Assembly: GCA_963704165.1 (NCBI GenBank)
Contig: CAVPHD010000004.1
Span: 192,001 to 256,000, forward strand
Direction: 5' to 3'
Source: an uncultured delta proteobacterium
GTDB lineage: Bacteria; Myxococcota_A; UBA9160; SZUA-336
DNA: 64,000 bases
In this document: piece by piece, positions 9,961 to 44,907 of the stretch
Numbering within the stretch: position 1 is the first letter of the stretch
Layout of the letters: each line of letters opens with the position of its first letter
The notes under the pieces: generated by a model
Told to the model about the DNA's origin: nothing
The model's input: only the letters and a program-made list of their open reading frames with translations
Databases searched by the model: none
Translations under genes and position numbers: made by a program

Positions 9961-10584
9961 CTACAGTCGCACTCCCGCGTCGCGCAGGATCGCCGTCAGC
10001 ATTCGCTTCATCACCGCGCGCGCGCTCGTGAGCGAGTTGCCTCGTCCGTGCCGAAGGTGCCCCCAGAGCACGGGCGCCATCGCGGCCGACATCGCCTCGA
10101 GCACCTCGGCCCGATCCGCCGCTTCCAGGTCCGCGAGCTCTCGACGGAACAGACGCTCGACGTCCTGGTGTTGAAGCCGAAGCGCGTCCCTCGACACCCG
10201 CAGGGCCTGATCGGCCGCCGGTCCGATCAGCGTTTGCGCGGTCAGCGCGCGCGTGAATGCCGCCATGGCTTCGAGGAACTTCGAGCGGACCTGCGCCAGA
10301 TGCTCGACGCGGGACGCGATCGGCTCGCGGTCGGAGATCTCCTCCAGGTACGGTGCGCAGCGCTGCATCCCCACTTCGACGACGGCGTCGTAGAGCTCCG
10401 CGAGATCCGCGAAGTGGTTGAAGATCGACCGACGCGAGACGCCCGCGCGCTCGGCGATCTGATCGGCGCTCGGTTGGAGCGCGCCTTCCTGCACGAGATC
10501 CAGGCAGGCTTCACAGATCGCCAAGCGCGACTGAACGGTGCGGCTCTGCCGTCCGTCGAGGTTGCCGGCCGTTCCCGAGGACAT
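9961..10584 (-). CDS. TetR-family regulator
   Basis: IAERAGVSRRSIFNHF HTH. Confidence 0.9.
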   Translation of the reverse strand: MSSGTAGNLDGRQSRTVQSRLAICEACLDLVQEGALQPSADQIAERAGVSRRSIFNHFADLAELYDAVVEVGMQRCAPYLEEISDREPIASRVEHLAQVRSKFLEAMAAFTRALTAQTLIGPAADQALRVSRDALRLQHQDVERLFRRELADLEAADRAEVLEAMSAAMAPVLWGHLRHGRGNSLTSARAVMKRMLTAILRDAGVRL

Positions 10585-10587
10585 GGG

Positions 10588-12429
<1,842 letters not shown>

Positions 12430-12500: not shown

Positions 12501-13762
12501 ATGGCAGAGCAGAGTGCGGTCAAGGCCCGACCGAAGCCGAGCTGGCACGGCGCGGATCCGGCAGAGCCGGCCCTACCTCGACGATCCCTACCCCGTCTAC
12601 CGACGTCTTCGCGAGGAGCACCCGGTCAGCCTGACACCTGATGGTGTCTGGCGGCTCACGCGCTACGACGACTGCCTGCGCATGCTCCGTCTCACCGGCG
12701 CCGGCATGCGGCGCACCGACGGGACGCTTGCCCGGACAGACCCTCGAGGAGGCCGCGGCGGAAGAGCGCGGCCAGTTCATGCTGCTCACGGATCCGCCCA
12801 AGCACACGCGTCTGCGCAAGCTCGTTTCCAAGGCGTTCACGCCGCGCGCGATCGGAGCCTGGCGCCCGCGGATCGAAGCCGTGACCGACGAGCTGCTCGA
12901 CCGCGCGGAGAAGTCGCGGCGAGATGGATCTGATCGCGGACCTCGCGCTGCCGGTTCCCGCGACGCTGATCTGCGAGATGCTCGGCGTGCCGGTGGGAGA
13001 CCGCGACACGTTCACCGAGTGGACGGCCGATGCCACCCACGGCCTCGCGCTGCGCCGCGGAAATTCGCCGCCCGGAGATCGTCGAGCGCGTCGAGAAGGC
13101 TCGCATGGGCCTCGCTGGCTACTTCAACCGGCTGATCCAGGCCCGCCGCGGGCAGACCGGCGACGATCTGCTGAGCGTGCTGATCGCCGCGGAGGAAGAG
13201 GGCGATCGGCTCAGTCCCGAGGAGCTTCTGATCCAGTCGATCGGGCTGCTGATCGCCGGCTTCGAGACGACGATCGGGTTGATCGGCAACGGGCTCACCA
13301 CGCTGATCCGCAACCCCGGCGAGATCGCGCGGCTCCGCGCACAGCCCGAGCTGATCGAGAGCGCGGTCGAGGAGTGCTTGCGCTACTCGGGGCCGATCAC
13401 GTGGACGGTGCGCATCCTCCACGAGCCGGCCGAGTTCGGCGGCTACGCGCTCGACGCGAACGAAGAGGTCGCCGTCGGGCTCGCCGCCGCGAACCGCGAC
13501 CCCGAGCACGTTCGCCGATCCCGAACGCTTCGACATCGCGCGCTTCGCCGCGATCCCCGCACCACCGCCACATCTCTCCTTCGGCGGCGGCGCGCATCTG
13601 TGTCTCGGCGCGCACCTCGCGCGGCTCGAGTCGCAGATCGCCATCGGAAGGCTCGTGCAGCGCTTCACGGATCTCGAGCTCGTCGAGCCGAAGACGACCT
13701 GGGGACGCTCGCTCTTCCGGGTTCCGGCGCGGGTGCCGGTGCGGTTCCGCGCGAGCACCTGA
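12501..13762 (+). CDS. Cytochrome P450 (several frameshifts)
   Basis: DPPKHTRLRKLV, LIAGFETT, EECLR, ANRDP, heme motif FGGGAHLCLG; stop at 13760-13762. Confidence 0.88.
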
Positions 13763-13916: not shown

Positions 13917-14441
13917 ATGAAGACGAACTCCGAAATGAGCGAGATCCCGGCCGTTGTCGTGGCCCAGGTGAACGGCCGCGTGGTGAACCAGAACGCGACC
14001 GCCCGTCGCCTGATGGGAGACGGCGAAGGCCGCGACTGCTGGCACGTCGTCGGAGGTCTGAAGGACGCGGAAGGCTTGCCGTGTCGCACGGGCTGCGTCC
14101 GTGAGCTGCTCGCGAGCGGAATGGACCGCGCCCGGCACACGCGCATCTCGCTCGCCGGGCGACAGCACTCCCTGACCTGCGTGCCGATCGAGGGCGCGGT
14201 CGTCTGTTCGCTGAGCTCGCCCTCGGCGCAGCAGCCGGAGACGTGGGAGCTGCTCACCGCGCGCGAGCGCGACGTGCTTCGGCTTCTCGCGCTCGGAAAG
14301 ACCGACCGCGCGATCGCGGCCGACCTCGGGCTCAGCAGCTCGACGGTGCGAACCCACGTCGAGCACATGCGCTCCAAGCTCGGCGTCGGCACGCGGGCCG
14401 CGTTGGTCGCCCGCGGCTTCGACCTGGGTTTCCTGTGCTGA
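13917..14441 (+). CDS. LuxR-family HTH regulator with PAS-like Cys-containing N-terminus
   Basis: LTARERDVLRLLALGKTDRAIAADLGLSSSTVRTH; N-terminal NQNATARRLMG..CWH..CRTGC. Confidence 0.85.
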   Translation: MKTNSEMSEIPAVVVAQVNGRVVNQNATARRLMGDGEGRDCWHVVGGLKDAEGLPCRTGCVRELLASGMDRARHTRISLAGRQHSLTCVPIEGAVVCSLSSPSAQQPETWELLTARERDVLRLLALGKTDRAIAADLGLSSSTVRTHVEHMRSKLGVGTRAALVARGFDLGFLC

Positions 14442-14470: not shown

Positions 14471-14488
14471 ATCGGTCAAATGACCGAT
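14471..14488. promoter_or_regulatory. 18-bp palindrome upstream of the nod-like gene
   Basis: ATCGGTCA-AA-TGACCGAT, 120 bp upstream of ATG 14608. Confidence 0.5.
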
Positions 14489-14607: not shown

Positions 14608-16931
14608 ATGAGCAATGAGAAGAGGAACCTAGCCCAAGTACTGCACGACAAGAAAACGTGGTGGGTCCACTTTCTGATCGTCGCTGCAATCTGTCTGAGC
14701 GGGCTCGTCTATCTCGGCACGGAGACCTACTACGGGGGCTCCGCCGCTCGAGAGCTACGTCTCGACCTCGGGCGAGGTGGTGATCCCGCTCGAGCAGATC
14801 AAGCAGGGTCAGGAGGTCTTCCACCTCCGCGGTCTGATGCTCTACGGCTCCTTCTGGGGTGACGGTGCCGAGCGCGGGCCGGACTTCACGGCCGACGCCC
14901 TGCACCGGACCGCCGTCGCGATGCGGGAGTACTACGAGCGGCACACGGAAGGGGCGCTGACGCAGTACGACAAGGACGCGATCAGGGCCCGGGTGATCCG
15001 CGAGATCAAGACGAACACCTGGAACGAGGGCGCGAAGAACATCGTGGTCAACGATGCTCAGATCCACGCGTTCCAGGAGCTGAAGACGCACTACACCAAG
15101 ATGTTCAACGACCCCGAGTACGCGGAGGCGTTCGAGCCGACGGGATTCATCAGCGACCAGGCCCAGCTCGACGCCCTGTCGGCGTTCTTCTTCTGGGGTG
15201 GTTGGGTTTCCGGCGCGAAGCGGCCGGGTCAGGAGTACAGCTACACGCACAACTGGCCGTACGATCCGGAGGCCGGCAATCTCGCGACGAACGAGACCCT
15301 GATCTGGAGCGTGGTCTCCATCTTCGGACTCTTCCTCGGCGTGCTCGTCATCCTGTACGTCTACGGCCAGTTCAAGGAGGAGGGCGATCCGTTCACGGGT
15401 AACGGGACGTCGCTCACCACGAACGACCTCGAGGTGGGCCGCATCCGCGCTACGCAGAGGGCCTGCTACAAGTTCTTCGTCCTCTCGATCATCCTGTTCG
15501 GGCTCCAGGTTCTCGCGGGAATGCTCGCGGCCACCGACTTCGTTCGCCCGTTCGGGATCTCGCTCGCGAGCATCATCCCGTTCACCGTTCTGCGCAGCTA
15601 CCACACGCTGTTCCAGATCTACTGGTTCTTCATGGCATGGGTCGGCTACACGGTCTTCTTCCTGCCGCGAATCTCGCGAGTTCCGGATGGCCAGCTCTTC
15701 CTGATCAACCTGCTCTTCGCGATCTGCATCGTGACGGGCGTCGGCGCGCTGGTCGGCATCTACGCCGGACAGACCGGAATGATCACCGGTCAGACCGCCT
15801 ACTGGTTCGGAAGCCAGGGCTGGGAGTTCATGGAGCTCGGCCGCGCCTTCCAGTACACGCTGCTCAGCTCGTTCGCGCTGTGGATCTTCATCATCTACCG
15901 CGCGGTCAAGCCGTGGCTGACGACGAAGAACGTCTGGTCGGTTCCTTCGTGGCTGCTCTACGGCAGCGGCATCATGGTCGGCTTCCTGTTCTTCGGGCTG
16001 ATGATCTCGCCCGATCAGAACTGGGCCGTCGCCGACTACTGGCGCTGGATGGTCGTGCACATGTGGGTGGAGGTGACCTTCGAGGTCTTCACCACCGTGA
16101 TCGTCGGCTACATGCTCGTACAGATGGGCCTGATCTCGCGCATGATGTGCGAGCGGGTCATCTTCCTGGCCGTCATGATGTTCCTCGTCACCGCGACGCT
16201 GGGCATCTCGCACAACTTCTACTGGATCGCGAAGCCGACCGGCATCATCGCGGTGGGCGGAGTCTTCTCCACCCTCCAGGTGCTGCCGCTGCTGCTCCTG
16301 ACGCTCGATGCGTGGCGCATGAAGTCCGAGGCGGTCCGCGCGCGGACGCACCTCCTCGCGGGACGGCAGGTCTACGTGATGGAAGGTGTCTGGCTGTACG
16401 TCCTCGCGGTCAACTTCTGGAACATCTTCGGAGCCGGCGTCTTCGGCTCGCTCATCAACCTTCCGATCGTCAACTACTACGAGCACGCGACCTACCTCAC
16501 CGGCAACCACGCACACGCGGCGATGTTCGGTGTGAAGGGCAACATCGCGATCGGCGGAATGCTGTTCTGCGCTCAGCACCTGCTCCCGAACAAGGTCTGG
16601 AACGAGAAGCTGATCCGGACGTCCTTCTGGTCGATGCAGATCGGTCTGCTTGATGATGATGGGTCTGGATCTGTTCCCGGTCGGCGTCTACCAGCTCATG
16701 CTCGTCTTCCGGGAAGGCCTGTGGTTCGCACGGACCCAGGAGGTTCTGACCGGGCCGGTGTGGGCGACCCTGACCTACATGCGCTCGATCGGTGGAACGC
16801 TGTTCATCGTGGGCGGCGTGCTGCCCCTGATCTGGCTGTTCCTGTCCAGGGCCGGCCAGCTTCGGCAGGAGACCCCGGAGCTCGAGCAAGAGGGCGAGTG
16901 GACCGTCTACGAGAAGGACTGGGCAGCGTGA
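14608..16931 (+). CDS. nod: qNor-family protein with NO dismutase (Nod) signature; frameshifts near 14731 and 16650
   Basis: YGSFWGDGAERGPDFTADALH, YTHNWPYDP, RSYH, HMWVEVTFEVF, GISHNFYW, FSTLQVLP, NHAHAAMFG, RSIGG. Confidence 0.85.
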
Positions 16932-17082: not shown

Positions 17083-17460
17083 GTGGCCAACATGATCACC
17101 GAGGAATGCGTCAATTGCGGTGCATGTGAGCGCATGTGCCCGGGCGGCGGGATCTCCCAAGGGGAAGAGACGTTCGTCATCGATCCCAGCCGCTGCACCG
17201 AGTGTGTCGGCTTCCATCACACGCAGCAGTGCGCGCGGGTCTGCCCGGTCGATTGCTGCGTGATCGATCCGAACAACATCGAGACCGAGGCCGTGCTCTT
17301 CGAGCGCGCACAGAAGCTGCACGACATCACGGGCCGCGAAGTCGTGCTCGGGCCGGAGACTTCGCACTACCAAGCCCACAAGCGCACGCTCGGCACGACG
17401 CTGAAGAAGCTGAGCCGAGGCCTGACCGACGTCCTTCAGGGGCCTCGACGGCGTTCCTGA
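17083..17460 (+). CDS. YfhL-like 2x[4Fe-4S] ferredoxin
   Basis: CVNCGACERMCP and CTECVGFHHTQQCARVCPVDC. Confidence 0.88.
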   Translation: MANMITEECVNCGACERMCPGGGISQGEETFVIDPSRCTECVGFHHTQQCARVCPVDCCVIDPNNIETEAVLFERAQKLHDITGREVVLGPETSHYQAHKRTLGTTLKKLSRGLTDVLQGPRRRS

Positions 17461-17607: not shown

Positions 17608-17895
17608 ATGTGGAAGTACTACGCGCTGATGTTCGTCGCCGTTGCGCTGATTCTCGCGTACACGTACGTTGCGGACCCCTGCCACAAGATGCTTCGAACC
17701 GACTTCGCGAAGGCGAATCCCAACTTCGTGATCCTGGATTCGGAGGCCGAGTCGGGTGCCCCGGAGAGTGTTCACTGCCGGATCTCGTATCAGAAGCCCG
17801 GTGACGACGGGACGTACGAAGACGTCTGGGTCTACCACCGGGGGAGACGGGTTGGGAGTTCTCCCGGGTCAGCGAGTCGGGAGCAAAGAGGCTGA
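17608..17895 (+). CDS. Small membrane-anchored hypothetical protein
   Basis: MWKYYALMFVAVALILAYTYV TM segment; 3' end possibly frameshifted. Confidence 0.55.
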   Translation: MWKYYALMFVAVALILAYTYVADPCHKMLRTDFAKANPNFVILDSEAESGAPESVHCRISYQKPGDDGTYEDVWVYHRGRRVGSSPGSASREQRG

Positions 17896-17944: not shown

Positions 17945-18961
17945 ATGTGTCCCCGTTTCAACTCGGCGAGCCTTTTGCGCATGGTCCGCGAAGTGGCCCC
18001 GGGAGTTCTCGGCTTTCAGATGGGCGTGGAGCTGCGATTGTGGCTTCAGCGTCGGCGGGTCGGTGGAGAGCGCGTGCTTCCGACGGCGCTCTATCTCGAG
18101 ACGTCGAGCTACTGCGCCGGCGCCTGCGCCAATTGCTATGTGCCGGCCGTCGATCGTCGCCAACACCTCCAACTCGATGTCGGCATGCTCGATCGTCTGC
18201 TCGTCGCTGCAGAGAAGCTGCCGATCGCGTACGTCTGCATCGTCGGTGGCGAGCCGCTGGACCCATCGATCGTCGATCTCAACTTGCGCCTCGTGCGCGA
18301 GCACCCGCGCACGCGGTTCCTGATCTGCACGAGCGGTGAGCCGGAGATCGGGCCGGAGCTCGGACGCGAGCTCGGTGCGCTCCGCAACCTCTCCCTTCTG
18401 ATCTCGTTCGAAGGCCTTCCCGAGACGCATCAGAGCATCCGCCCCCGCGGCTCCTTCGACAACGCGAGCGCCGCCTTGGATGCCTACCGTCGCTACAGCG
18501 GCAGTCTGTGCGGAGCGAGCGTCACGCTCCGTCCGGACAACTGGCAAGAGGCCACGGGTCCGGAGTTCTTCCGGCAGCTCACGAGCGCGGGTGCTCAGTA
18601 CTTCGTCTACGCTCCGTGTGAGACCCGAACCGGGAACCAGATGCTGAGCCCGGAGCTGCACGCCAGCGCTCTCGATCGACTCGCCGAGCTCTCCGCATCG
18701 TCGAGTGCGCTGGTCTTCTCGTACCCCTTCGGACAGATCCAGGGACGACGAATCGCGCCCGCTCGACGCTTTCGTTCCCTCACCGTGGACTACCTGGGCA
18801 ACGTCTACATCGCGCGCCGTGGTGCGTGCTTCGGCAACGTCTACGACACCGACCTCGCTACGCTGCTCTCTCGGCCCGCGCTCCAGACCGCGTACAGTCA
18901 GGCCGCCGCTGGCCCCGCCCACTGGCGTCCGACGTCGGTGCCGACGGGCGCTTGGACCTGA
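17945..18961 (+). CDS. Radical SAM protein of unknown function
   Basis: CAGACANCY, GGEP, ISFEG; start uncertain. Confidence 0.8.
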   Translation: MCPRFNSASLLRMVREVAPGVLGFQMGVELRLWLQRRRVGGERVLPTALYLETSSYCAGACANCYVPAVDRRQHLQLDVGMLDRLLVAAEKLPIAYVCIVGGEPLDPSIVDLNLRLVREHPRTRFLICTSGEPEIGPELGRELGALRNLSLLISFEGLPETHQSIRPRGSFDNASAALDAYRRYSGSLCGASVTLRPDNWQEATGPEFFRQLTSAGAQYFVYAPCETRTGNQMLSPELHASALDRLAELSASSSALVFSYPFGQIQGRRIAPARRFRSLTVDYLGNVYIARRGACFGNVYDTDLATLLSRPALQTAYSQAAAGPAHWRPTSVPTGAWT

Positions 18962-18979: not shown

Positions 18980-19597
18980 TCACAGGTAGAGGCAGACGTA
19001 GAGCACGGGCCAGATGCCGACGGCGAAATACCACGAGATGCACGCGGCCGAGAAGGCGCTGCTACTCAGCGCGGCCCTCGCGGGGACGTTCTCATCGCGG
19101 AAGGGCTTGAGGCGCAGCCAGATGACGCTCAGGAAGCTCAGCGTCCCCACCACGTGCAAGGCGTGCATTCCGACGATGATGCAGAAGAACACGCCGTGAT
19201 CGCTCGAGGTCAGCGTCAGGCCGTCGTCGATCAAGTTGCGCCACACGATGCCCTGGAAGAACAGGAAGAAGCTGCCCAGAACGATCGCGGCCAGGAGGAG
19301 TGGACCGATTCGCGCGTCTCGATTGTCCCAGGTGCGCGCTGCCCGGAACACGAGGGCGCCGCTTGCCAGCAGTGCGGCGGTGTTGATCGCGGTCTCGCCC
19401 AGCGGGAACCAAGGCTGATTCGGGGGCGGCCAGACGGTGCCATCTACCGATCGCGTCAGCATGAACGCGGTCACCATTCCGAGGAACATCATCGCCTCGG
19501 AGACCACGATGACGATCATCGCGACCATGCCGCGATCGATCGCGAATCGGCGCGCGCGTCGATGCGGCTGAATCGAGACCACGTTCTGTCCGCTCAT
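18980..19597 (-). CDS. Heme-copper oxidase subunit III / NorE-like membrane protein
   Basis: SEAMMF, NTAALLASG, GMHALHV, WYFAVGIW. Confidence 0.78.
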   Translation of the reverse strand: MSGQNVVSIQPHRRARRFAIDRGMVAMIVIVVSEAMMFLGMVTAFMLTRSVDGTVWPPPNQPWFPLGETAINTAALLASGALVFRAARTWDNRDARIGPLLLAAIVLGSFFLFFQGIVWRNLIDDGLTLTSSDHGVFFCIIVGMHALHVVGTLSFLSVIWLRLKPFRDENVPARAALSSSAFSAACISWYFAVGIWPVLYVCLYL

Positions 19598-20934: not shown

Positions 20935-22617
20935 ATGCGCCATCTCGCAACGAATCGCACCCACTCTTTCGAACGAGCCCTCGCCCTGACGGCGCGAGTG
21001 CTCGGGTGCGTGCTCGCGATCGCGATCCTGGCGGGGTCCGCGTTTGCGGCCGAGCCCGCCAAGACCCCGGCGGTGGTCAAGCAGCCGGTGCCGAAGCTCA
21101 CCCCTGCCGAGCTCGCGGAGGGCACGCAGATCTACTTCGATCGCTGTGCGGGCTGCCATGGAACGCTTCGCAAGGGCGCGACCGGACCGAAGATCGACGA
21201 CGAGGCGATGCTCGAGAAGACTCTTTCGAAGCTCGAGGAAGTCATTCACGACGGCACCGACGCCGGCATGCCGGGCTGGGGCCGCACCGGCGAGATGACC
21301 GCGGCGCAGACCAAGCTGATGGCGAAGTTCCTGCAGAACCCGCCTCCGATTCCGCCCGAGATGAGCCTCGCGGACATGAAGAAGAGCCACAAAGTCTACG
21401 TGCCCGTCGACAAGCGGCCGACGAAGCCGCAGCACAAGTACGACGTGGACGAGCTCTTCGGCGTGATTCTGCGCGACGCGGGCAAGGGCGCGATCATCGA
21501 CGGCAAGAGCAAGGAGCTCATGACCGTCGTCGACACCGGCTTCGCGGTCCACATCTTCCGCTCGTCGGGGACCGGCCGCTACTTCTACACGATCGGCCGC
21601 GACGGCAAGGTGAGCCTGATCGACCTGTTCGCAGCCAAGCCCACCGTGGTCGCCGAGGTTCGAACTTGTTCCGACGCGCGCAGCGTCGAGGTTTCGAAGT
21701 ACAAGGGTCCGAAGGGCGACTTCGTCGACAAGCTCGCGATCGTCGGCTGCTACTGGCCGCCGCAGCTCGTGATCCTCGACGGGCAGACGCTCGAGCCCAA
21801 GAAGGTCATCTCCACCCGATCGATGACCTACGACACCAACGAGTACCACCCCGAGCCGCGCGTTGCGACGATCATCGCTTCGCACTTCGACACGGAGTGG
21901 GTCATCGCGATCAAGGAGACGGGTCTCGTCTGGCTGCTCGACTACTCGGACCTCGTCAACGTCAAGATGCACCAGATCGAGACCGAGCGGTTCCTCCACG
22001 ACGGCGGATGGGACGCGACGAAGCGCTACCTGCTGATCGCCGCCAACATGCGCGACCAGATGGTCGTCGTGGATACGAAGGAGAAGAAGTTCGTCACCAA
22101 GTTCGAGACCGGCGTGAAGCCCCATCCCGGGCGTGGCGCGAACTGGGACGATCCGGAGTTCGGTCCGGTGAGCGCGACCACGCACCTCGGCGAGGGGAAG
22201 ATCACGGTCTACGGATCCGACCCCGCGGGTCATCCGCAGCACGCGTGGAAGATCGTGCGTGAGCAGGAGACGGCGGGTCCGGGTCTCTTCCTCAAGACCC
22301 ACCCGAAGAGCGAGAACGTCTGGACCGACGCGACCTTCGCGAAGGACGGCAACTCGAATCAGACGATCTGTGTCTTCAAGAAGAAGAGCTTCGACGACGG
22401 CGCCCAGTGTTTCGAGGCGACCAAGCACGGGAAGATCGTGCACTTCGAGTACAACAAGGCCGGCGACGAGGTCTGGGCGTCCGTCTGGGACAGGAAGGGC
22501 GTGCTGATCGTCTACGACGACAAGACGCTCGAGGAGAAGGCTCGGATCGAGGCGGACTGGCTGGTGACTCCCACCGGGAAGTGGAACGTCTACAACACCG
22601 TTCACGACGTCTACTGA
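20935..22617 (+). CDS. nirS: Cytochrome cd1 nitrite reductase
   Basis: CAGCHGTLRKGATG, GRDG, YWPP, YHPEPRVA, FLHDGG, PHPGRGAN, TPTGKWNV. Confidence 0.96.
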   Translation: MRHLATNRTHSFERALALTARVLGCVLAIAILAGSAFAAEPAKTPAVVKQPVPKLTPAELAEGTQIYFDRCAGCHGTLRKGATGPKIDDEAMLEKTLSKLEEVIHDGTDAGMPGWGRTGEMTAAQTKLMAKFLQNPPPIPPEMSLADMKKSHKVYVPVDKRPTKPQHKYDVDELFGVILRDAGKGAIIDGKSKELMTVVDTGFAVHIFRSSGTGRYFYTIGRDGKVSLIDLFAAKPTVVAEVRTCSDARSVEVSKYKGPKGDFVDKLAIVGCYWPPQLVILDGQTLEPKKVISTRSMTYDTNEYHPEPRVATIIASHFDTEWVIAIKETGLVWLLDYSDLVNVKMHQIETERFLHDGGWDATKRYLLIAANMRDQMVVVDTKEKKFVTKFETGVKPHPGRGANWDDPEFGPVSATTHLGEGKITVYGSDPAGHPQHAWKIVREQETAGPGLFLKTHPKSENVWTDATFAKDGNSNQTICVFKKKSFDDGAQCFEATKHGKIVHFEYNKAGDEVWASVWDRKGVLIVYDDKTLEEKARIEADWLVTPTGKWNVYNTVHDVY

Positions 22618-22632
22618 TCGGAGGAAGGATTC

Positions 22633-23242
22633 ATGCAGCGTCTCCTGATCGCGGTCGTATCCGCGTGCGTCTTGGGTCTCGTATCGGGACCGGCGCACGC
22701 GGACGGAAAGAAGCCCCACCAGTTCGCCGGGGCCGTGAAGTGCCGGTCCTGCCACGAGAAGGACGAGATCGGAAACCAGTACGGGAAGTGGCTGGACTCG
22801 AAGCACGCAAAAGCTTGGAGCACGCTCGCGTCCGACAAGGCGAAGGAGTGGGGCAAGAAGCGGGGGATCGACGATCCCCAGGCTTCCGACAAGTGCGTCA
22901 AGTGCCACGTTGCCGCGCACGGCGAGCCCAAGCCGCGTCTCAGCATGAAGTACTCCCCCAAGGAGGGCGTGACCTGCGAGGCGTGCCACGGCCCGGGAAG
23001 CGACTACCGGAAGAAGAAGATCATGATGAACCAGGACGAGGCGGTGAAGAGGGGCCTCGATCCTGCAGACCGAGAAGGTCTGTCTGACCTGCCACAACGA
23101 CGAGAGCCCGGCTTGGGATCCCGCACGCTACAAGCTGGCCGGCGGCAAGACGGCGGGGTTCGACTACGAGCAGGCGAAGAAGGCGATCGCTCATCCCGTG
23201 CCCGAGGGGTACGACCCCTCGAAGGACAGCGGGGACGAGTAG
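22633..23242 (+). CDS. Periplasmic tetraheme cytochrome c (c554-like); frameshift near 23060
   Basis: Signal peptide; CRSCH, CVKCH, CEACHGPGS, CLTCH. Confidence 0.82.
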
Positions 23243-23267
23243 AGAATGCTGGACGAGGAGGGGCACG

Positions 23268-24820: not shown

Positions 24821-24824
24821 TTCG

Positions 24825-26536: not shown

Positions 26537-26559
26537 GGGGGCTCCTTCGACGGCGCCTC

Positions 26560-29650: not shown

Positions 29651-29654
29651 GGCC

Positions 29655-32041: not shown

Positions 32042-32043
32042 CG

Positions 32044-33084: not shown

Positions 33085-34224
33085 TCACTTCGACTCGATC
33101 ACCCCCGGTGCCTTGATCTGCTCCAAGAGATCGTTGTCCCACTCGCCCTCGACCACGACGTGCGCCGCGGCTCCCTTCAGGACCGCGTCGATCAGGTTGT
33201 GGTTCAGGTACACGTACAGACCCGGCTGCTCGAACGTGTAGAGAGCCGCTCCAGCGGTTCCGCCCGGAATGAACCAGGTCTCCTGGTTCGTCTGGGGCGG
33301 ATCGTTGAAGGAGCCCGTCGCCCACACGAAATCCCCGTGACCGCCGATCAGGTGCGGTCGAGTGTCTCGATTGGCCTGCGAGTGGAGGAACAGGACGGTC
33401 TCTCCGACGTTGGCCTTGAGTGCATGCTCGCCGGTCAGCGCGCCCACGGCGCCATTGAACACGACATGGCTGGGCTCGTTGGTGAGCATCACTTCGAGCG
33501 TGTCGGGCATGGCGGTCAAGACCGAGTCGAAGTTCTTGTACTTCCCATCGCTACCCTTGGGAATGTAGAGATCCTGCTCGCCGATGTAGTACGCGCGGTC
33601 GTAGTGTAGCGGGTTCCCCTTCGGATCCTTCAGGCCGTCGCGTGGAAGAACCATGATCGCGCCGTTCATTCCCGTCACGACGTGGTAGGGGATCATCGCG
33701 CCGCCGGGCGCACAGTGGTAGACGAAGACGCCGGGCTTGGTCGCCTTGAAGCGAATCGTCGCTTCCTGGCCGGGAGCGATCAGCGAGAGACCCGCGCCCC
33801 CGAGCGCGCCCGTGGCGGCGTGGAAGTCGATGTTGTGACTCATCACGTTGCCAGGGAAACCATCCCAGTGCTCCGGATTTGCGACGCCGGGCGCTTTTCG
33901 GGGTCTGTTGACCAGTGTGAGCTCCACGTAGTCGTTCTGGTGCACGACGATCATCGGCCCCGGAACGGTTCCCTGAAAGGTCATCGCATTGATCGTCGTT
34001 CCGTCCGGATCGATGACGAGCCTGCGTTCCTCGACCTCGAGTCGGACCTCGACGATCCTCGGGCCACCGTCGGCCTTCTGCGAGTGCTTCGGGAGCAACG
34101 GCGGTGCCACGAGGACCTGCTTCACGCGCGGAAGCCCCTTGGCCTTCGAAGGCTTGTCCGCCAGCACCGTGGCTGCGGGGAAGCAGATGGCAACGGCCAG
34201 GAACGCGCAGGCGACTCGTTTCAT
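33085..34224 (-). CDS. nirK: Copper-containing nitrite reductase
   Basis: [35 protein letters not shown]. Confidence 0.96.
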
Positions 34225-34976
34225 TTCCTGTTCTCCTCGGTGTCTCGATCATGGTGTGGAAGTGGAGGGTTGGCGGGGTGTTCGACCGCCTTGGAATCAC
34301 ATCCGGAAGTCACATCGCACGGCGCGCCGTCCGTCGCCTGCGCGAGCAGCGAGCGCACGGCACGCTCCATCTCTGGAAGCGGTGACCCCGAGAAGAAGAG
34401 CCCACGTGTGCGGCCATCGCCGTCGAGCAGGTAGATCTGCTGCGCGTGGGTGTAGAGGTACGACTTCTCGGTGAACGACTTCGAGCGGTGGTACTCCGTG
34501 CTCACCTCTACGTCGTGCGTGCGATGGTGTTCCGCCATGTAGAGGGCCGCGATCCGGTTGATCTGCTCGGGAGTTCCGGTGAGACCCACGAAGCGGGAGT
34601 CGAACTGCGCGAGATACGTCGCGAGTGTCTCCGCGGTGTCGGTCTCGGGGTCGACGGTGACGAAGAGAACTTGCACGCCTTCCGCCGCCGTCCCGAGGCG
34701 ACCGACCAGCGCATCGAGGTGAGCGAGCGTGACCGGGCAGACATCCTGGCAGCTCGTGTACCCGAAGAAGAGCAGCACGACCTTGCCGCGGTAGTCGGTC
34801 GTACGCACCTCGTGACCGAGACTGCTCGGCGCAGCGAAATCGCCCCCGATGCCGTCGAGGATCGGCAGTGCTTCGTCGGAATTCGCGCGTACCGCAGAGG
34901 CAGCGCCGAGGCTCAGCGTCAGGAGCGCGCCGGCGAGAAGCAGATAGGCGCGCACTCGGCAACGCGGCTCAATCAC
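34221..34976 (-). CDS. SCO-family copper chaperone
   Basis: [20 protein letters not shown]; overlaps the nirK start. Confidence 0.88.
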
Positions 34977-35508
34977 AGACGATCCGCGGCCCGGTCCCGG
35001 GGAACGGAAGGGCGAGACGCTGATCGATCTGCACCACGCTGGGCACACCGTCGGCGCTGAAGCGCAACCGCCAAGTCTGGTCGAAGCGAGCAACGTGGAT
35101 GGATCGGTCCGCGAAATGCGCTCTCCGCTCGACTTCGAATCGGGCACGGTACAGGCCGCCGGGCTCGAGCGTGATCCGTATCGAGTCGATGGCGTATTCG
35201 ACTCGCGCGCTCGACGGCCGAAGCTCTTCGAGCCAGATCGCGACATCGTCCGTGCGCCGCCCGGCCGTGTCGGCGACGGAGATCTCGAGCGACGACCCGA
35301 GTTCAAGTGCCGCCAGCGACCGTTGCTGCGCCGGGGCGGCCGCGAGCTCATGGAACCAGTCGCGGATTCGGGACTCGATCGCGTCAGCGGGCGCCTGAAC
35401 GACCTCGGGGCTCAGGCTCGAGTCCGGTTCGCCCTTGGTCGCTGGGACCGCGGCGATCAAAACCACAAGGGTCGTGAGAAGCGATGAGGTGCTCGAGGAT
35501 CCGCTCAT
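34969..35508 (-). CDS. Exported hypothetical protein (possibly NTF2-like)
   Basis: Signal-like N-terminus; overlaps the SCO gene start. Confidence 0.55.
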   Translation of the reverse strand: MSGSSSTSSLLTTLVVLIAAVPATKGEPDSSLSPEVVQAPADAIESRIRDWFHELAAAPAQQRSLAALELGSSLEISVADTAGRRTDDVAIWLEELRPSSARVEYAIDSIRITLEPGGLYRARFEVERRAHFADRSIHVARFDQTWRLRFSADGVPSVVQIDQRLALPFPGTGPRIVCD

Positions 35509-35702
35509 TTAGGGCTCATTCGAGGCGTGTCACGGGCCTCGTCGTCAAACCGTGTAGAAGAGAACGTGAGCAGCAATCGGCCTGGTCGGGAATGCCCCTA
35601 GCCTGCCATGCGGATTCGGTTGCAGATCCAGCGCGCGAACTCGTTCGCGGATATCGCCCCCTCGCTCGCTCAAACAGCCTCGCACCCGAACCGCTCGCCG
35701 GA

Positions 35703-35718
35703 TATGACCGCGGTCATA
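35703..35718 (-). promoter_or_regulatory. Crp/Fnr-type box upstream of the hyp-sco-nirK operon
   Basis: Perfect palindrome TATGACCGCGGTCATA; minus-strand TGcGAGGCT -10 at the same 37-nt offset as other copies. Confidence 0.65.
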
Positions 35719-37066
35719 GGGGCGGTCCGCCGCGCCGCACCGCATTCGCGAGGCCGGCGAGGAGCGCGAGCCCGGTCGTCATGAGAAGTACACCCGCGGC
35801 GCGAGCGAGCGAGTCGGAGCGCAGCGCGATCGCCAGTCCGCCGACGACCAGCGTCGTCGAGTGCAGCGCGAAGCAGGTCTGCGTCCACGAATCGGGAAGG
35901 AGCGCGCGGGCCGAGGGCACGCCGGGCTCACCGGCGCGCGGTGCAAATCGGTGCAGCCATACCAGGAACGGAACGATCCGCCCGAGCATTCCGTGGACGA
36001 TCATCCCGGCCCAGCCGAAGAGCGCGAGCCAGCCGAGCAATACGCCCCAACGCGGATCGGCGGCGAAGTAGGCGACCACCGCGACGATCCCGCAGAAGGG
36101 CGCGACGAGAAGCGCGGTGTTCCAGAAGAGCAGGTTCGGATCCGAGCGGCGTCGCCGTCGCACGCGAAGGCTCCGGAGGATCACGAACGGATGAATCCCC
36201 CAAACCGCGACGACCGCGGGGAGCGCCGCGGCTGCGGCCAGGCGCGAGGCGTGGACGTCGCTGTCGCCGATCGCGCCCGTGTAGAAGAGCACGAGCACGA
36301 CGACCGGAAGCAGCGCGCCGGCAGTCGCGAGTCCCGCCACCCAGCGCCTCGAGGTCGGGTGAACCTGCGGCGAGAGAGTGAAGAGCGGGAGCACCTGCCA
36401 CGAGACCGCGACGATCAGGCCTCCGACCCAGCCGAGCAGTCCCACGCACAGGTGCACCTGGATGAACAGCCCGCGTGGCCCGGGAAAGCGCATGCCGCTG
36501 TGGCCGTGCGCCATCCAGAGACCGAGCAGCGCCGTCAAGAAGAAGGCGAGCAGGGCGGCCATCATCCCGACCACGGTCTCGTTTCGCACGGGAGCGCGGA
36601 AGAGCGCGCGCCCGATCGGAATCACGAAGAGCAGCACGGCGGGGGTGATCAGCGCGATGGCCCAGAAGACCAGGCGCGGAAATCCTCCCACGATGCCGAC
36701 GATCAGGCCCGCGACCCCGATCACGAAGAGCGCGTGAACGGTGTGCCCGACACGGATACGGCCGACCGGGTTGCCCGCGATGACCGCCGTCATCTGGTAG
36801 AGCGCGCCCATCATCACGAGCGTCAAGAATCCGAGTGTTCCGAGGTGCGCGATCGCGAGCGTGATCGACGCGAATCCCGTTGCGATCGAGTACTCCCCGT
36901 AGGTGGCGAGCAGCGCCCCGGCCGCGAGGAAGGCGAGCGGTGCCGTCAGGAAGAACGAGAGCGGAACCCAGAGTGGTGGCGCGCTGGAGAGTTGGAGCCC
37001 GTCGGTCTTCAACGCGATGGACTCAATCGTCGGCCGGACGCTCGACGTAGACGAGTCCGCTCCCAT
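35714..37066 (-). CDS. Polytopic membrane protein with intramembrane His residues (DUF2249-associated type)
   Basis: About 12 TM segments; AHLGTLGF..MMGALYQM, VHLC.GLLGW, GMLGRIVPFLVW. Confidence 0.7.
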   Translation of the reverse strand: MGADSSTSSVRPTIESIALKTDGLQLSSAPPLWVPLSFFLTAPLAFLAAGALLATYGEYSIATGFASITLAIAHLGTLGFLTLVMMGALYQMTAVIAGNPVGRIRVGHTVHALFVIGVAGLIVGIVGGFPRLVFWAIALITPAVLLFVIPIGRALFRAPVRNETVVGMMAALLAFFLTALLGLWMAHGHSGMRFPGPRGLFIQVHLCVGLLGWVGGLIVAVSWQVLPLFTLSPQVHPTSRRWVAGLATAGALLPVVVLVLFYTGAIGDSDVHASRLAAAAALPAVVAVWGIHPFVILRSLRVRRRRRSDPNLLFWNTALLVAPFCGIVAVVAYFAADPRWGVLLGWLALFGWAGMIVHGMLGRIVPFLVWLHRFAPRAGEPGVPSARALLPDSWTQTCFALHSTTLVVGGLAIALRSDSLARAAGVLLMTTGLALLAGLANAVRRGGPPL

Positions 37067-39309: not shown

Positions 39310-40491
39310 ATGAGCGGAACGACGAGGTTGGAGTTGGTCGAGCGGGCGCGGAAGCTGGCGCCGGCGCTGGCGGCGCGGGCCGAGGAGTGCGAGCGACTGC
39401 GGCGGCTCCCGGACGCGACGATCGAGGATTTCCGCCGCGAGGGCCTGCTTCGCGCCTTCGTCGCGCCGACGTACGGCGGTTACGGGCTCGAACTCGCGAC
39501 GGTGATCGAGACCTCGCGCGAGATCGGACGGGCGTGCGGCAACAGCGCATGGTGTCTGGCGATCTGCACGCTCCACAATCACATCGTGTCGGCCTTTCCG
39601 GACGCGGTGCAGGCTCAGGTGTTCGCGCGGGGTCCCGATCCGGTCGTCTGCGGCGTGTTCGTGCCGGGCGGGACGGCCGTCGCGACGGACGGCGGCTACC
39701 GCCTCTCGGGACGCTGGGACTTCGCCAGCACCTGCGACCACGCGGACTTCGCGGTGCTCGCCGCCTTCGTGGTCCCGGCGCCGGGCGCCGAGCCGACGGG
39801 CATGGCGAGCTTCCTGATCGAGCGCGCGCAGTTCTCGATCGAGGACAATTGGCACGTGTCGGGCTTGTCGGGCACCGGGAGCAAGCGCGTCATCGTCGAC
39901 GACGTGACGGTCGCGGCCGAGCGCGCGCTGCCCACGTCGCTCGACGCCGCGATCACCGGCGATCGCGAAATCACGGCGCGCGGCCGGCAGTCGGCCGGGC
40001 TTCCCGGAAGCTCGGTCGCGACCCTCGGGCTCGCCGGAGTGGCGCTCGGTATCGCGTACGGTGCGATCGACCGCTTTCGCGAGCGACTGTCGAGCAAGCT
40101 GCGAATCGCGTCGCCGAAGTCCGTCGAGCAGAACGTCGGCGCGCAGCTTCGCTTGGCCGAAGCGGCGACCGAGGTCGACGCCGCGGAGCTGCTCGTGCTT
40201 CGGGACTGCGAGGAAATGACCGCCGACGCGCAGGCCGGGCGACCCGCGACCCTGCTTCAGCGCGCTCGCTACCGGCGCGACGCTGCGTGGGCGGTGCAGA
40301 CCTGCGCGCGTGCGGTGCAGCGGCTGCAGCCGGCCGCCGGCGCGCACGGAATCTTCCTGGATCAGCCGATCCAGCGCGCGACGCGCGACATCCAGGCCTT
40401 CGCCGCGCACGTCGTGTCCGACTGGGACGCGAGCGGTGAGTCCTACGCGCGCGCGCTGCTCGGCCTGCCGAAGAACGATCCCCTGGTCTGA
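39310..40491 (+). CDS. HsaA-like flavin-dependent monooxygenase oxygenase component
   Basis: E..RRLP, CGNSAW, LSGRWDFAS, WHVSGLSGTGS, QRATRD. Confidence 0.85.
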   Translation: MSGTTRLELVERARKLAPALAARAEECERLRRLPDATIEDFRREGLLRAFVAPTYGGYGLELATVIETSREIGRACGNSAWCLAICTLHNHIVSAFPDAVQAQVFARGPDPVVCGVFVPGGTAVATDGGYRLSGRWDFASTCDHADFAVLAAFVVPAPGAEPTGMASFLIERAQFSIEDNWHVSGLSGTGSKRVIVDDVTVAAERALPTSLDAAITGDREITARGRQSAGLPGSSVATLGLAGVALGIAYGAIDRFRERLSSKLRIASPKSVEQNVGAQLRLAEAATEVDAAELLVLRDCEEMTADAQAGRPATLLQRARYRRDAAWAVQTCARAVQRLQPAAGAHGIFLDQPIQRATRDIQAFAAHVVSDWDASGESYARALLGLPKNDPLV

Positions 40492-40509
40492 AACGAGGAG
40501 GGCATCCCG

Positions 40510-41025
40510 ATGGCATCGCCGAAGAAGCTCGCGCACATCGCGCTGGCGACGAACGACGTGACCCGAATGCGAGACTGGTACTGCCGCGTGCTCGAGGCGC
40601 GCGTGGTCTTCGAGAACGAAATGCTCTGCTTCACGACCTACGACGACGAACACCACCGGGTGGTCTTCGCCAAGCCGCCGGGATTCGAGGCGAAGCCCGG
40701 CACGGCGCAGAACCTGCACCACTTCTCGTTCACGTACGCGACGCTGGGCGAGCTGCTCGCGACGTACGAGCGACTGCGAGACGACGACATCCGACCCTGG
40801 TGGACGATCCACCACGGCCCGACGCTGTCGATGTACTACCGCGACCCCGACGGGAACAACGTCGAGCTGCAGATCGACACCATGACGATGGATCAGGCCG
40901 GCGAGTTCCTCCGCAGCGGCGCGTTCGCGAAGAACCCGATCGGAATTCCGTTCGACCCCGAGGAGCTCGTCTCGCGTCATCGAGCGGGTGCGAGCGAGAC
41001 GGAGCTCTTGCGGTATGGCAGCTGA
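40510..41025 (+). CDS. VOC/glyoxalase-family protein (extradiol dioxygenase-like)
   Basis: LAHIAL, DDEHHR, HHGPTLSMYYRDPDGNNVE. Confidence 0.85.
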   Translation: MASPKKLAHIALATNDVTRMRDWYCRVLEARVVFENEMLCFTTYDDEHHRVVFAKPPGFEAKPGTAQNLHHFSFTYATLGELLATYERLRDDDIRPWWTIHHGPTLSMYYRDPDGNNVELQIDTMTMDQAGEFLRSGAFAKNPIGIPFDPEELVSRHRAGASETELLRYGS

Positions 41026-41668
41026 CTCCGCCCTCGGCGCTTCGGCCGACCGGCTCGAATCCGTCGTCGAGACCGCGGAACGGCTTTTCGCGTCGCGTGG
41101 CTTCGAGAAGACCGGAATGCGCGAGCTGGCGGCCGAGACGGGGATCTCGACCGCGACGATCTACGCGCGATTCCGAAGCAAGCGGCGGCTGCTCGCGGAG
41201 ATCGTCGAACGTCGCCTCGACGAGGCGCTGCAGATCGCGGACGGATTTCCGGTCGCGACCGACGACTCGTCCGGACCGACACACCCGCTCGACGTGTATC
41301 TCGACACGATCCGCAGACTCAATCGTCACTTCTCCGGCGACCCGTTGCTGCGCCGGATCTTCGCGTTCGAGAGCCACGTGCGCGACCGCCGCGTCCTGCA
41401 GCACGCTCGGCGGGTCGATCGAGAGCTGACCGCGCGTTCGGCCGCCACGCTCGCGCGCCTGTCGGCCGACGGCTGGATCCGCTGCGAAGACCCGGAGGCC
41501 CTCGCGCACTTGATCAGCCTGAGCGTGCAGGGCTGGCTCGCCTACGAGAGCCGCCACGGCGCACCGCTCAGTGAGGAGCGTCTGACCGCCGCGTTGATCG
41601 AGTCACTTCGCGCGCTGGCGCTTCCCGGGCCGTCGCGATCCCGAACCACCACGAGGAGACCCAGATGA
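41015..41668 (+). CDS. TetR-family regulator
   Basis: GFEKTGMRELAAETGISTATIYARFRSK. Confidence 0.88.
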   Translation: MAADSALGASADRLESVVETAERLFASRGFEKTGMRELAAETGISTATIYARFRSKRRLLAEIVERRLDEALQIADGFPVATDDSSGPTHPLDVYLDTIRRLNRHFSGDPLLRRIFAFESHVRDRRVLQHARRVDRELTARSAATLARLSADGWIRCEDPEALAHLISLSVQGWLAYESRHGAPLSEERLTAALIESLRALALPGPSRSRTTTRRPR

Positions 41669-42213
41669 CGTCCCCGATCCCGAAGCTTCACTTCAGCCAC
41701 CTCGGATTCCAGGTGCGCGACATCGACCGCATGATCGAGTTCTACACCGGTCAGCTCGGCTTCGTGCTCACCGACCGCGGGCACCTCGAGGTGCTGCCGG
41801 GAAAGCCGCAGATCGCCTTCCTCAGCCGTGACCCCGACGAACATCACCAGATCGCGCTGGTCGAAGGACGGCCGCCGACCGGCGAGGGAACGGTGAATCA
41901 GATCTCGTTCCGCGTCGATAGCCTCGCGGACTTGCGCGCGCTGCGCGCGCGCCTCGAGGCCGCGGGCGTGACGCGCTTCCTGCCGTTGAGCCACGGCAAT
42001 GCCTGGTCGGTCTACTTTCCGGACCCCGAGGGCAACGCAATCGAGTGTTTCGTGCCGAGCCCCTTTCACACGCGACAGCCGGTCGCGGACCCGCTCGATC
42101 TCTCGCTCAGCGACGAGGAGATCGTGGCGCAGACCGAAGCGAAGTACCGCAACTCACCCGACTTCCAGCCCCGCGCGAGCTGGCGCGCGGCCTTCGAGAA
42201 GCGGCTGGGCTGA
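41665..42213 (+). CDS. VOC-family protein
   Basis: FSHLG, DEHHQ, HGNAWSVYFPDPEGNAIE. Confidence 0.85.
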   Translation: MTSPIPKLHFSHLGFQVRDIDRMIEFYTGQLGFVLTDRGHLEVLPGKPQIAFLSRDPDEHHQIALVEGRPPTGEGTVNQISFRVDSLADLRALRARLEAAGVTRFLPLSHGNAWSVYFPDPEGNAIECFVPSPFHTRQPVADPLDLSLSDEEIVAQTEAKYRNSPDFQPRASWRAAFEKRLG

Positions 42214-42760: not shown

Positions 42761-43919
42761 TCAGAGCATCGCCTTCTCGGTGCCGATTCCGAGAAGCACG
42801 CGGCCGACGACTTCGAGCGTCGGCTCGGCGACCATGAGGTGTTGCGTGGCGACGTGCACGTCGCGGAAGCAGCGCGAGAGCGGGCTCGCGTCGTAGATCG
42901 CGGTGCCGCCCGCGGCCTGGTAGACCTGATCGACCGCATGGGCGGAGCGCCAGGTCGCGTGCGTGGCCGCGAGCCGCAGCAGCGCGCGCGCCTCGGTGTT
43001 CAGCGCTCCGCGCTGCGCGACCGCCCACACCTCGTCGAGCACCTCGAACAGGAACGCGCGCGCCGCGCGCAGCGAGGCCTCGGCATCCGCGACGGCGCGT
43101 TGCGCAAGCGGTCGGTTCGCGAGCGTGCGCGCGCTGCCCGTCGGCACCTTTCCGACGGCGAGCGCCAGGAACTCCTGGATCGCCCGGCGCGCGATCCCGA
43201 GCGACACCGACGTGACGCCGAGCGCGAGCAGTCCCAGCGTGGGGAACTGGAAGAGCGGCCCCTCGATGCGCGGGCGTCCGCCGAGCAGGACGGATCGGCC
43301 CTCGGGCACGAAGGCGTCGTTCACTTCGAAGTCGTGGCTTCCCGTGCCGCGCAGACCCGACGTGTGCCAGGTGTCGAGCACGCGGACCTGTCCGGGCTCG
43401 AAGAAGAACAGCCGTCGTCTCGCTGCCGGACGGCCCCGTCGCGGCAGTCTCGCCGTTCGCCTCGGCGACGACGCAACCGCCGGCGATCCAGTCGGAGTGG
43501 TGGATGCCGCTGGCGAACGGCCAGCTGCCGCGCACCACGTGGCCACCGGCGACGGGCCGCGCCACGCCGCCGGAACGCACGACGCCGCAGGTCGCGACGT
43601 TCGGATCCGAGCCGTAGATCTTGCGCGCCCATTCGTCGGGGAGCGAGCTCGCGAGCAGCCCGGTCGTCGCTCCGATCATCGTACACCAGCCGGTGGAGCC
43701 ATCGGCGCGACCGATCTCCTCGATCACGCGCACCACGTCGCGGACGTGACGCTCGCTGCCCCCGTAGCGCGCCGGGACGCAGACACGGAACAGGCCGGCC
43801 TCGGCCAGCTTCCGCGCCAGGTCGCGCGGGATCGCGCGCTGCACGTCTCCCTCTGCGGCCCGCTCCGAGATCAGATCCGCCAGACCCCGCGCTGCTTCGA
43901 ACTCCGGGCACTCATTCAT
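42761..43919 (-). CDS. Second HsaA-like flavin-dependent monooxygenase (frameshifted)
   Basis: ADGSTGW, GSWPFASG, TWHTSGLRGTGSHD, RCFRDVHVATQH. Confidence 0.83.
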
Positions 43920-44907
43920 CGCGCGATCTTGATCCGTCGGTCGGTCCCCACGCAACCGGCGCCGAGTGCCGCAGCGCATCGATCCGCACGCGATGTGCGA
44001 TTCCGATCGGGCAGCTCTCCTCGCAGGCTCCGCAGCCGGTGCACGCGTCGAGGACGCTCCTCGGAATCGCGCGCGCGGCCGGATCGGAGCGCTGCGCGAG
44101 CAGCAGCCGCATCGGCGAGAGCGGATGCCCCTCGCGCGCGGGGGGCAGGCGACATCGCAGCGAGCGCAGCCGCTGCACGCGGCGAGCTGCAAACGCAGCC
44201 GCCACGGGAGTCGTCCACGCGCGTCGATCGCAGGAGGAACGGCGGGCTCGCGCGCATTCAGCAGGATCGAAAGCGGCGCGGCGAGAACGTGGCGAAGCCT
44301 CGTGAACGGGATCGCCGCGAGCAGCGCGGTGGCGGAGGCGATGTGAGCGACGTGGAGGACGCCGAAAGTCGCGGCACCCGCGAGTCCGGATCGCACGAAG
44401 AGCCGCGCGAGTGCGTGCCCGAGCCAGAGCTCGGCCTGCGCGTCGGCCGGCACGAGGGCGAGGCGTGCCCCTTCGACGAGAAATCCGCTCACGGGCACCG
44501 CCAGCAAGAGGACGAGCACGAGACCATCTCCGGGGAGGTCGACCTGCAACCGCTGCCAACGCCGCACGAAGCGGCGGTACAGGGCCATGGCCCCGCCGAG
44601 TGCCAAGGCCACTCCCGAGATCTCGCGCGTCAACGGAAGCCAGGCCTCGAGCGCGTGGAGAACGGCCGGCCGTGAAACGCCGGCGTGCGCCCAACGCTCG
44701 AGCGCCGTCGCCACGACGAGTCCCGCGGCGCCCCAGGACAGAAGCGAGTGCATCAGCGGTGCCCGCCAGCCTCCGCGGCGAATTCCGGACTGGACGATTG
44801 CGCGCTGCCAGAATTCGGTCGAGCGCGCCCCCCCGGCCCGGCGCGCTCAGCACCCGGGAGTCGATGATCCCGTCCCCGGTTCGAAAACCTGGTCCGTGTG
44901 CGAGCAC
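43912..44907 (-). CDS. NarI/HdrE-like membrane domain fused to a 4Fe-4S dicluster (frameshifted, start uncertain)
   Basis: MHSLLSWG, SGFLVEGAR, PFTRLRH, CSGCARCDVACP, CTGCGACEESCP. Confidence 0.65.
   Translation of the reverse strand: MLAHGPGFRTGDGIIDSRVLSAPGRGGALDRILAARNRPVRNSPRRLAGTADALASVLGRRGTRRGDGARALGARRRFTAGRSPRARGLASVDARDLGSGLGTRRGHGPVPPLRAALAAVAGRPPRRWSRARPLAGGARERISRRRGTPRPRAGRRAGRALARARTRAALRAIRTRGCRDFRRPPRRSHRLRHRAARGDPVHEASPRSRRAAFDPAECARARRSSCDRRAWTTPVAAAFAARRVQRLRSLRCRLPPAREGHPLSPMRLLLAQRSDPAARAIPRSVLDACTGCGACEESCPIGIAHRVRIDALRHSAPVAWGPTDGSRSRDE

Follow-up and report, generated by a model that had tools for sequence, protein, structure and literature searches.

The stretch analyzed here (the window: 64,000 nucleotides, C4:192001-256000) belongs to the assembly of an uncultured delta proteobacterium (GCA_963704165.1; 3.87 Mb, 84% complete, 68% GC) and encodes a putative nitric oxide (NO) dismutase, Nod, together with the NO-producing enzymes NirS and NirK and four proteins of oxygenase families, namely a Baeyer-Villiger monooxygenase (BVMO), a cytochrome P450 and two HsaA-like flavin monooxygenases (HsaA1 and HsaA2). 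A preliminary description had joined these genes and two for VOC proteins into a candidate intra-aerobic system, and Pfam and NCBIfam searches confirmed all of them in their places. Using comparative genomics we arrive at a different reading, which we hold tentatively and at a little under an even chance: the region would be a denitrification island built on a constant core (a LuxR-type regulator, a palindromic "nod box" and nod), in which NO is shared between Nod and a second route through eNOR and NosZ, and any O2 formed enters a general pool.

Our main comparison genome, G007, is a sister species of the same genus (80-87% nucleotide identity). We also used 60 genomes of relatives, nine of them with nod; a set of 13 related nod loci, made up of those nine and four named loci; and a broad set of 80 nod loci from many phyla.

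The conserved nod module and its candidate operator

Within 12 kb of nod, the 13 related loci encode a YfhL-type ferredoxin in 11 cases, a paralogue of cytochrome oxidase subunit III (COX3) in nine, the LuxR protein in eight and a membrane protein of 95 residues in seven. The six best matches of the nod-adjacent COX3 copy all come from nod genomes; in a seventh such genome the copy next to nod is more divergent. Judged by score, the other relatives seem to hold only the COX3 copy of the aa3 oxidase. By these gene-neighborhoods the conserved unit is LuxR, box and nod along with the ferredoxin, the small membrane protein and an apparently nod-specific COX3 paralogue.

A matrix built from nine sites recovered the box ahead of nod at 21 of the 80 loci, namely 15/15 loci with an adjacent LuxR gene and 6/65 without one (11/11 and 3/62, respectively, outside the training set). 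Its scores in the present genome are 26 bits at nod and 11.8 bits for a weak site at 37311, ahead of the nirK operon; the best scores upstream of the BVMO, P450, HsaA1 and HsaA2 genes are -3.0, -3.0, 0.9 and -1.2 bits, and those of nirS and nosZ are also 0.9 bits or less. These patterns suggest that the LuxR protein binds the box, a candidate operator, and is the likely regulator of nod. In relatives, boxes are likewise found ahead of nirK operons, of YfhL and Rrf2 genes and, in two cases, of a gene for an AurF-like protein beside nod.

Among the 35 loci of modelled oxygenase families in the genome, a good box (18 bits) was found only at a divergent halogenase-like pair on contig C11, which heads two AurF-like genes and a desaturase gene; the whole cluster (C11:224500-231630, L216; box-like site at 226708) further includes a luciferase-like gene. 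Orthologues of this pair in G056 also have the site and lie 1 kb from nod, but by score alone the C11 box is at chance level, with 7 matches of at least 17 bits against 0-8 for 12 shuffled matrices. We discarded the idea of a regulon covering AurF-like genes in general, since no site of at least 13 bits occurs in 20 regions, 125 kb in total, around those AurF-like genes that do not adjoin nod. We also withdrew an apparent box near a P450 gene in L065, as it precedes an open reading frame (ORF) without an assigned family. Of 17 distal box hits in relatives, 11 fall inside called genes, and no oxygenase gene occurs among those adjoining the other six.

Identity and integrity of nod

Aligned with the Geobacillus qNor, the product of nod retains H508, E512 and H559 but shows the substitutions H560N, which removes the FeB histidine (GISHNFYW at 16211), E581Q (FSTLQV), H328T, E332R and D746G, with F336 falling in an alignment gap; the glycine at 746 is seen in the G007 orthologue and in the shifted frame of the window gene. 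We take E332 and F336 to be further residues of the quinol site. In a FastTree phylogeny the window protein clusters with Nod and apart from qNor and cNor (support 99). Thus, by the family criteria of lost FeB histidine, lost catalytic glutamate, lost quinol site and tree placement, this is a genuine nod. The changes agree with those that Ettwig et al. 2012 reported (PMC3413370; this and the other papers cited here are represented by extracts). Its nearest named relatives, mostly from records of Myxococcales, Myxococcota or Deltaproteobacteria, are 79-88% identical to the G007 Nod, which in turn is 64% identical to a Methylomirabilota Nod. One relative, G017, has two tandem nod copies (C65:19455-23580, L045), the second of which ends at the contig end or is broken.

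Many genes of the window and the assembly, nod, nosZ, P450, HsaA2 and NrfD among them, are frameshifted, as would be seen if nod and several of its neighbors were decaying pseudogenes and no system were active. We regard this as highly improbable: relative to G007 the differences comprise 43 isolated extra bases and four missing ones in 108 kb, patchily distributed over several contigs, a pattern of read errors that makes assembly errors the likely cause of the breaks. Moreover, the G007 nod orthologue is an open frame of 774 codons, and the two genes differ by dN 0.076 and dS 0.45 (dN/dS about 0.17).

Sources of NO and its second exit

The NO sources expected of an intra-aerobic pathway, nirS and nirK, are in the same genome as nod. 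No nitrate reductase (Nar or Nap) scored above cut-off at the six loci scanned out of seven molybdopterin-family matches, in an assembly that is incomplete and where these pieces are frameshifted. A module of multiheme cytochrome, 4Fe-4S protein and NrfD directly after nirS (window 22633-26049) is kept in G007, G022, G033, G038 and G040 and is likely a quinol oxidase feeding NirS.

The preliminary description had noted the lack of canonical norB and norC in the window, and this holds for the entire assembly, where cNorB and qNor queries matched nod only. Its proposal that the genome be searched for another nor nonetheless had a positive outcome. The assembly encodes three heme-copper subunits: that of the aa3 oxidase, Nod, and the product of C7:174692-176494, which has Gln, Ser, His and Tyr at the positions of ba3 Tyr237, Ser309, Thr312 and Tyr248. 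These are the residues of eNOR (Murali et al. 2024, PMC11214002, Dataset S1; also PMC8756737), a proven and biochemically characterized NO reductase in Rhodothermus marinus (PMC11214002), and a gene for a CuA subunit II lies upstream (the pair spans C7:174208-176494). By its diagnostic residues the C7 gene is an eNOR. Its operon (C7:172500-180860, L189) also codes for a cytochrome b/Fe-S protein and a heme o synthase. A clade II nosZ, overlooked earlier, starts at position 696 of the window. Given eNOR and nosZ, the missing norB and norC do not make Nod the sole sink of NO: absence of norB does not mean absence of Nor, and on gene content NO has a second, N2O-forming exit.

An eNOR-like gene occurs in 16/60 relatives, namely 7/9 nod-bearing genomes as against 9/51 others, with the motif read in this genome and G007 only and the other calls made from 57-82% identity; nosZ is present in 11/13 nod genomes. 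The genome further encodes an aa3 oxidase and, away from eNOR, the heme a synthase CtaA; a search of it for cytochrome bd found none. Heme a, which eNOR requires, comes from an O2-dependent synthase, and Nod might supply the O2 for this step. The same question of O2 supply for heme a is posed in a Ferrigenium preprint (10.64898/2026.01.22.701106).

The neighboring oxygenases

Both HsaA-like proteins are group D flavin monooxygenases by Pfam, with 261 and 87 bits against the NF045629 cut-off of 450 (the second is a fragment). As they and the BVMO fall under their equivalog cut-offs, their substrates are unassigned; no HsaB, HsaC or HsaD neighbors were called in the window, and the VOC proteins are not established as O2-using dioxygenases.

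G007 has the same gene order from nosZ to LuxR-nod-YfhL, without TetR-BVMO-P450 between the flanking gene and LuxR. Its TetR-BVMO pair is on a different contig from nod, and none of its six P450 genes is on the nod contig (C12) or on C46, a contig that ends with the genes following YfhL in the window. Overall, BVMO and P450 are unlinked to nod in G007 and eight other nod-bearing relatives, and BVMO orthologues are on non-nod contigs in every nod relative possessing them. The HsaA1-VOC-TetR block is on contigs without nod in G017 and G022 and has close homologues in two nod-less relatives, and the nir genes of G007 are not on C46. Because the BVMO and P450, the HsaA block and the nir genes differ in placement among relatives, the region gains and loses blocks freely, and the oxygenase blocks have separate histories. 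Three of the four oxygenases adjoin TetR genes of their own; all four are without an FNR box, and the FNR/DNR search gave zero matches with one mismatch (1.8 expected). Conserved linkage to nod or shared control was thus found for none of the four, the HsaA link being probable and confined to the genus.

Chance adjacency, a caveat raised in the preliminary description, was gauged from gene density. Of 3606 windows of 22.3 kb in this genome, 351 (9.7%) contain a P450, BVMO or HsaA-like gene, and two are present in 86 (2.4%); 17% hold one of the 35 oxygenase-family loci. On the other hand, four such genes in 35 kb are found in 2/3456 windows, which is the genome maximum, although the region limits were drawn around the oxygenases.

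We then compared the 9-kb flanks of the 13 related nod loci (198 kb) with those of 16 eNOR and 13 cNor/qNor loci (454 kb), calling genes with our own profiles and with Pfam on cluster representatives of 180-650 residues (126/128 run on the control side and 42/50 on the nod side, the remainder being already labelled) and excluding luciferase-like, halogenase-like, nitronate and amine oxidase families. At least one oxygenase family was found at 9/13 nod loci and 5/29 controls (Fisher 0.003), or at 6/13 and 4/29 (0.046) without the AurF-like family; for P450, BVMO and HsaA-like genes the counts are 5/13 and 1/29 (0.007). The oxygenase-family genes near nod are non-orthologous. AurF-like genes, whose products have an R2/R2lox-like fold and are putative diiron enzymes, adjoin nod at 8/13 loci (0.5 expected) and belong to at least three subfamilies, but in the present genome there are none within 100 kb of nod.

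Across phyla, 29/80 nod loci have an oxygenase-family gene within 10 kb, a count from profiles seeded on these same loci and without a control. In L068 (5755-10690) and L069 (7428-12334), from Rhodobacterales metagenome-assembled genomes (MAGs), genes for a P450, an AlkB-like desaturase and Nod are co-directional, the last two 86-121 bp apart; an assignment of these P450s to CYP153 was withdrawn, the data giving only P450 and AlkB-like desaturase. An apparent AurF-like-SCP2-like-nod operon occurs in L130, L134 (8390-12367), L135 and L137, hosted by Binatia, Myxococcota and one Thermodesulfobacteriota record, and PhyH, TauD-like and UbiM genes adjoin nod at some of the 80 loci. On contig C14 of G013 (L037, L038), a genome with nod and nirK, an AurF-like gene lies 480 bp from nod and two P450 genes are present; eNOR, cNor, qNor and nosZ were not found in this assembly (89% complete). 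Other recurrent neighbors are a UbiM-type ubiquinone hydroxylase gene immediately 3' of nod in L100, L101 and L104 (Proteobacteria), genes for a Rieske oxygenase and NnrS upstream of nod in L094, L101, L102, L104 and L105 (Proteobacteria), and Coq4-like genes near nod in L061, L062 and L066, of the same clade as our locus.

Competing explanations

In the reading we prefer, NirK and NirS would make NO, and LuxR would bind the box and switch on nod and probably nirK. NO would be split between Nod and the eNOR/NosZ route, with trace-level dismutation of its share by Nod yielding N2 and O2. This trace O2 would be taken up by the aa3 oxidase, by the heme a synthase needed for eNOR maturation and by any oxygenases whose own substrates induce them via TetR repressors; the nearby oxygenases would be gained and lost under a mild selective pull towards nod. 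As the four oxygenases are without the likely control signal of Nod, they are probably neighbors sharing any O2 and not a dedicated system. Several observations weigh against this reading. Contig C46 of G007 carries HsaA2 (91%) and HsaA1 (86%) together with genes for a PhyH dioxygenase and an HpaB-like enzyme, so that proximity of the HsaA pair to nod is probable in that species too; the join of C12 and C46, for which an overlap search found no overlap, rests on synteny and is likely. The enrichment depends largely on the AurF-like family, chosen after it was seen, and for P450, BVMO and HsaA-like genes the relatives' loci alone give 2/9 (P 0.11 against genome density). Its P values are overstated, since related genomes are not independent samples, a P450 with 88% identity recurs at two loci and the BVMO and HsaA counts are partly assumed. 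Expression of the Rhodothermus eNOR solely under microoxic conditions (PMC11214002) means that Nod could be the only NO sink in full anoxia. Finally, Nod has never been purified, contradictory results have been published (PMC11549561, PMC13386854), and production of O2 and N2 from NO is unproven for the family.

Alternatively, Nod could be an NO reductase or detoxifier that makes N2O with electrons delivered via the ferredoxin and membrane proteins, in a facultative aerobe whose oxygenases are active with external O2 only; the adjacency of nod and oxygenases would then reflect a shared variable region. The ferredoxin, which a pure dismutase would not need, speaks for this, as do the frequency of nosZ in nod genomes, the box ahead of nirK operons, YfhL and Rrf2 genes (an NO-response set) and the ease with which the island acquires and drops genes. 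Acyl-CoA dehydrogenase (ACAD) genes have P450, BVMO or HsaA-like genes within 10 kb in 9/44 cases, and neither Elbon et al. nor Fuchsman et al., in the extracts, decide what Nod produces. Against it, the quinol site and catalytic glutamate are replaced in the window Nod and its relatives, a separate NO reductase of working type is already encoded, and O2-independent neighbors (ACAD or luciferase-like) show no enrichment around nod (4/13 as against 6/29); we consider it doubtful, if a serious contender. The system of the preliminary description, in which O2 that Nod makes from nitrite would let the BVMO, P450 and HsaA-like enzymes attack cyclic or steroid-like compounds under anoxia, draws on the density of these families around nod, the greatest of any 35-kb stretch in the genome, on their excess over the control loci, on the probable HsaA linkage in G007 and on the P450-AlkB-like-nod runs of L068 and L069. 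Its general idea survives in so far as varied oxygenase-family genes are enriched at the nod loci of the clade, but as a dedicated system of these four enzymes it appears distinctly unlikely: eNOR and NosZ are present, the BVMO is unlinked to nod in relatives, the HsaA1 block occurs apart from nod, and no box is shared. Thus two of the outcomes named in advance as telling against it, another Nor (here of a non-canonical type) and unconserved linkage (for BVMO and P450), were in part what we found. The oxygenase substrates are unassigned, and a type II DMSO-family enzyme of the PcrA/EbdA-like type with a heme b gamma subunit, encoded together with a TetR gene at C9:57880-62450 (L184), may hydroxylate without O2.

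A broader possibility is that in Myxococcota and Gammaproteobacteria Nod generates O2 under LuxR control, served by a ferredoxin and a subunit-III-like partner of its own, and that lineages have repeatedly placed O2-dependent enzymes (diiron AurF-like, P450, AlkB-like, PhyH, TauD and UbiM) beside it, sometimes under the same operator. Its O2 would here go to the box-bearing halogenase-like/AurF/desaturase cluster of C11 and to the making of heme a for eNOR. While we judge it unlikely, it would, if true, explain the co-occurrence of nod and eNOR.

Relation to known systems and earlier work

The putative Nod proteins of Ca. Methylomirabilis oxyfera and the gammaproteobacterium HdN1 have the same substitutions (Ettwig et al. 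2012, PMC3413370). In contrast to those organisms, the present genome has a single nod copy, next to which neither pMMO nor alkane hydroxylase genes were seen; it keeps eNOR, NosZ and the aa3 oxidase and additionally has the ferredoxin, the COX3 paralogue and the small membrane protein. With Rhodothermus marinus (PMC11214002) it has in common NirS, NirK and NosZ and, in eNOR, the CuA subunit and the Q/S/H/Y residues, with the heme o synthase gene downstream here; unlike in that organism, eNOR co-occurs with Nod, ctaA is elsewhere and the activity is assigned by sequence. The window oxygenases share family motifs and folds with PtlE, CHMO-type BVMOs and HsaA but differ in their sub-cut-off scores and, for HsaA, in gene context.

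Parts of this picture are already in print. Elbon et al. (10.1101/2023.11.21.568154) reported nod in Alpha- and Gammaproteobacteria and Myxococcota of oxygen-deficient zones, once with nirS (in Myxococcota), as well as its LuxR and ferredoxin neighbors, and by the extracts found no consistent nod neighborhood; the LuxR neighbor also appears in PMC13386854. Nod in UBA9160 is listed in Dataset S6 of Murali et al. 2024 (PMC11214002), and the intra-aerobic idea has been put forward by Elbon et al., Ruff et al. (PMC11549561) and in PMC11828985 and PMC13386854. The last, a survey from 2026, reports in its extracts no O2-consuming enzymes adjoining nod in its MAGs. Our literature search, outside which most subscription papers lay, found nothing on the nod box, the COX3 paralogue or the oxygenase excess. 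While this locus does not settle the role of Nod in non-methanotrophs, it provides a candidate operator for a Nod regulon, accessory genes perhaps needed for an active enzyme, and a strong nod-eNOR co-occurrence. Better test cases would be G013, L068 and L069, and the nod-bearing records whose titles name cultured strains (L098, L128).

Other features of the window

Table 1. Features in and next to the window (window coordinates unless a contig is named)
Feature	Position	Strand	Remarks
Clade II (Sec-type) nosZ, 5' end	1..696	-	TIGR04246 pieces; gene extends past window edge
nosD and ABC genes after nosZ	nosZ region C4:190690-192696		NosD match
TetR regulator	9961..10584	-	Travels with BVMO
Type I BVMO, PtlE-like	10588..12429	-	FxGxxxHxxxW motif; matches to solved BVMOs
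Cytochrome P450	about 12560..13762	+	Start approximate; several frames; I-helix, ExxR and heme Cys present
LuxR-type regulator	13917..14441	+	Cys-containing N-terminal part; single copy
Palindromic nod box	14472..14487		TCSGTCA-WW-TGACSGA type; 120 bp upstream of nod ATG
Putative NO dismutase Nod	14608..16931	+	Single-base shifts near 14730 and 16650
YfhL-type 2x[4Fe-4S] ferredoxin	17083..17460	+
Small membrane-anchored protein	17608..17895	+	No family; also in some Gammaproteobacteria
Radical SAM protein	17981..18961	+	Near nod in 2/13 related loci and on G007 contig C46
Extra COX3 (subunit III-like) paralogue	18980..19597	-
nirS	20935..22617		First gene of nir block 20935..33051
Rest of nir block	to 33051		Multiheme cytochrome-4Fe4S-NrfD module, cytochrome c, nirN, nirJ, nirF, nirDL
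KstD-like flavoprotein	28166..29650		Inside nir block; absent from that place in G007
Membrane protein, ORF without assigned family, SCO, nirK	33085..37066	-	Same strand
nirK	33085..34224	-	Above TIGR02376 cut-off
HsaA-like, VOC, TetR, VOC block	39310..42213	+	Occurs also away from nod
HsaA1	39310..40491	+	Below HsaA cut-off
VOC proteins, single-domain	40510..41025 and 41665..42213	+
HsaA2	42761..43919	-	Two frames; below HsaA cut-off

Beyond these, a long WD40-repeat gene, broken into several frames, lies at 44587-48816, and a tRNA-Phe(GAA) gene at 55708-55783 possibly marks an edge of the variable region.

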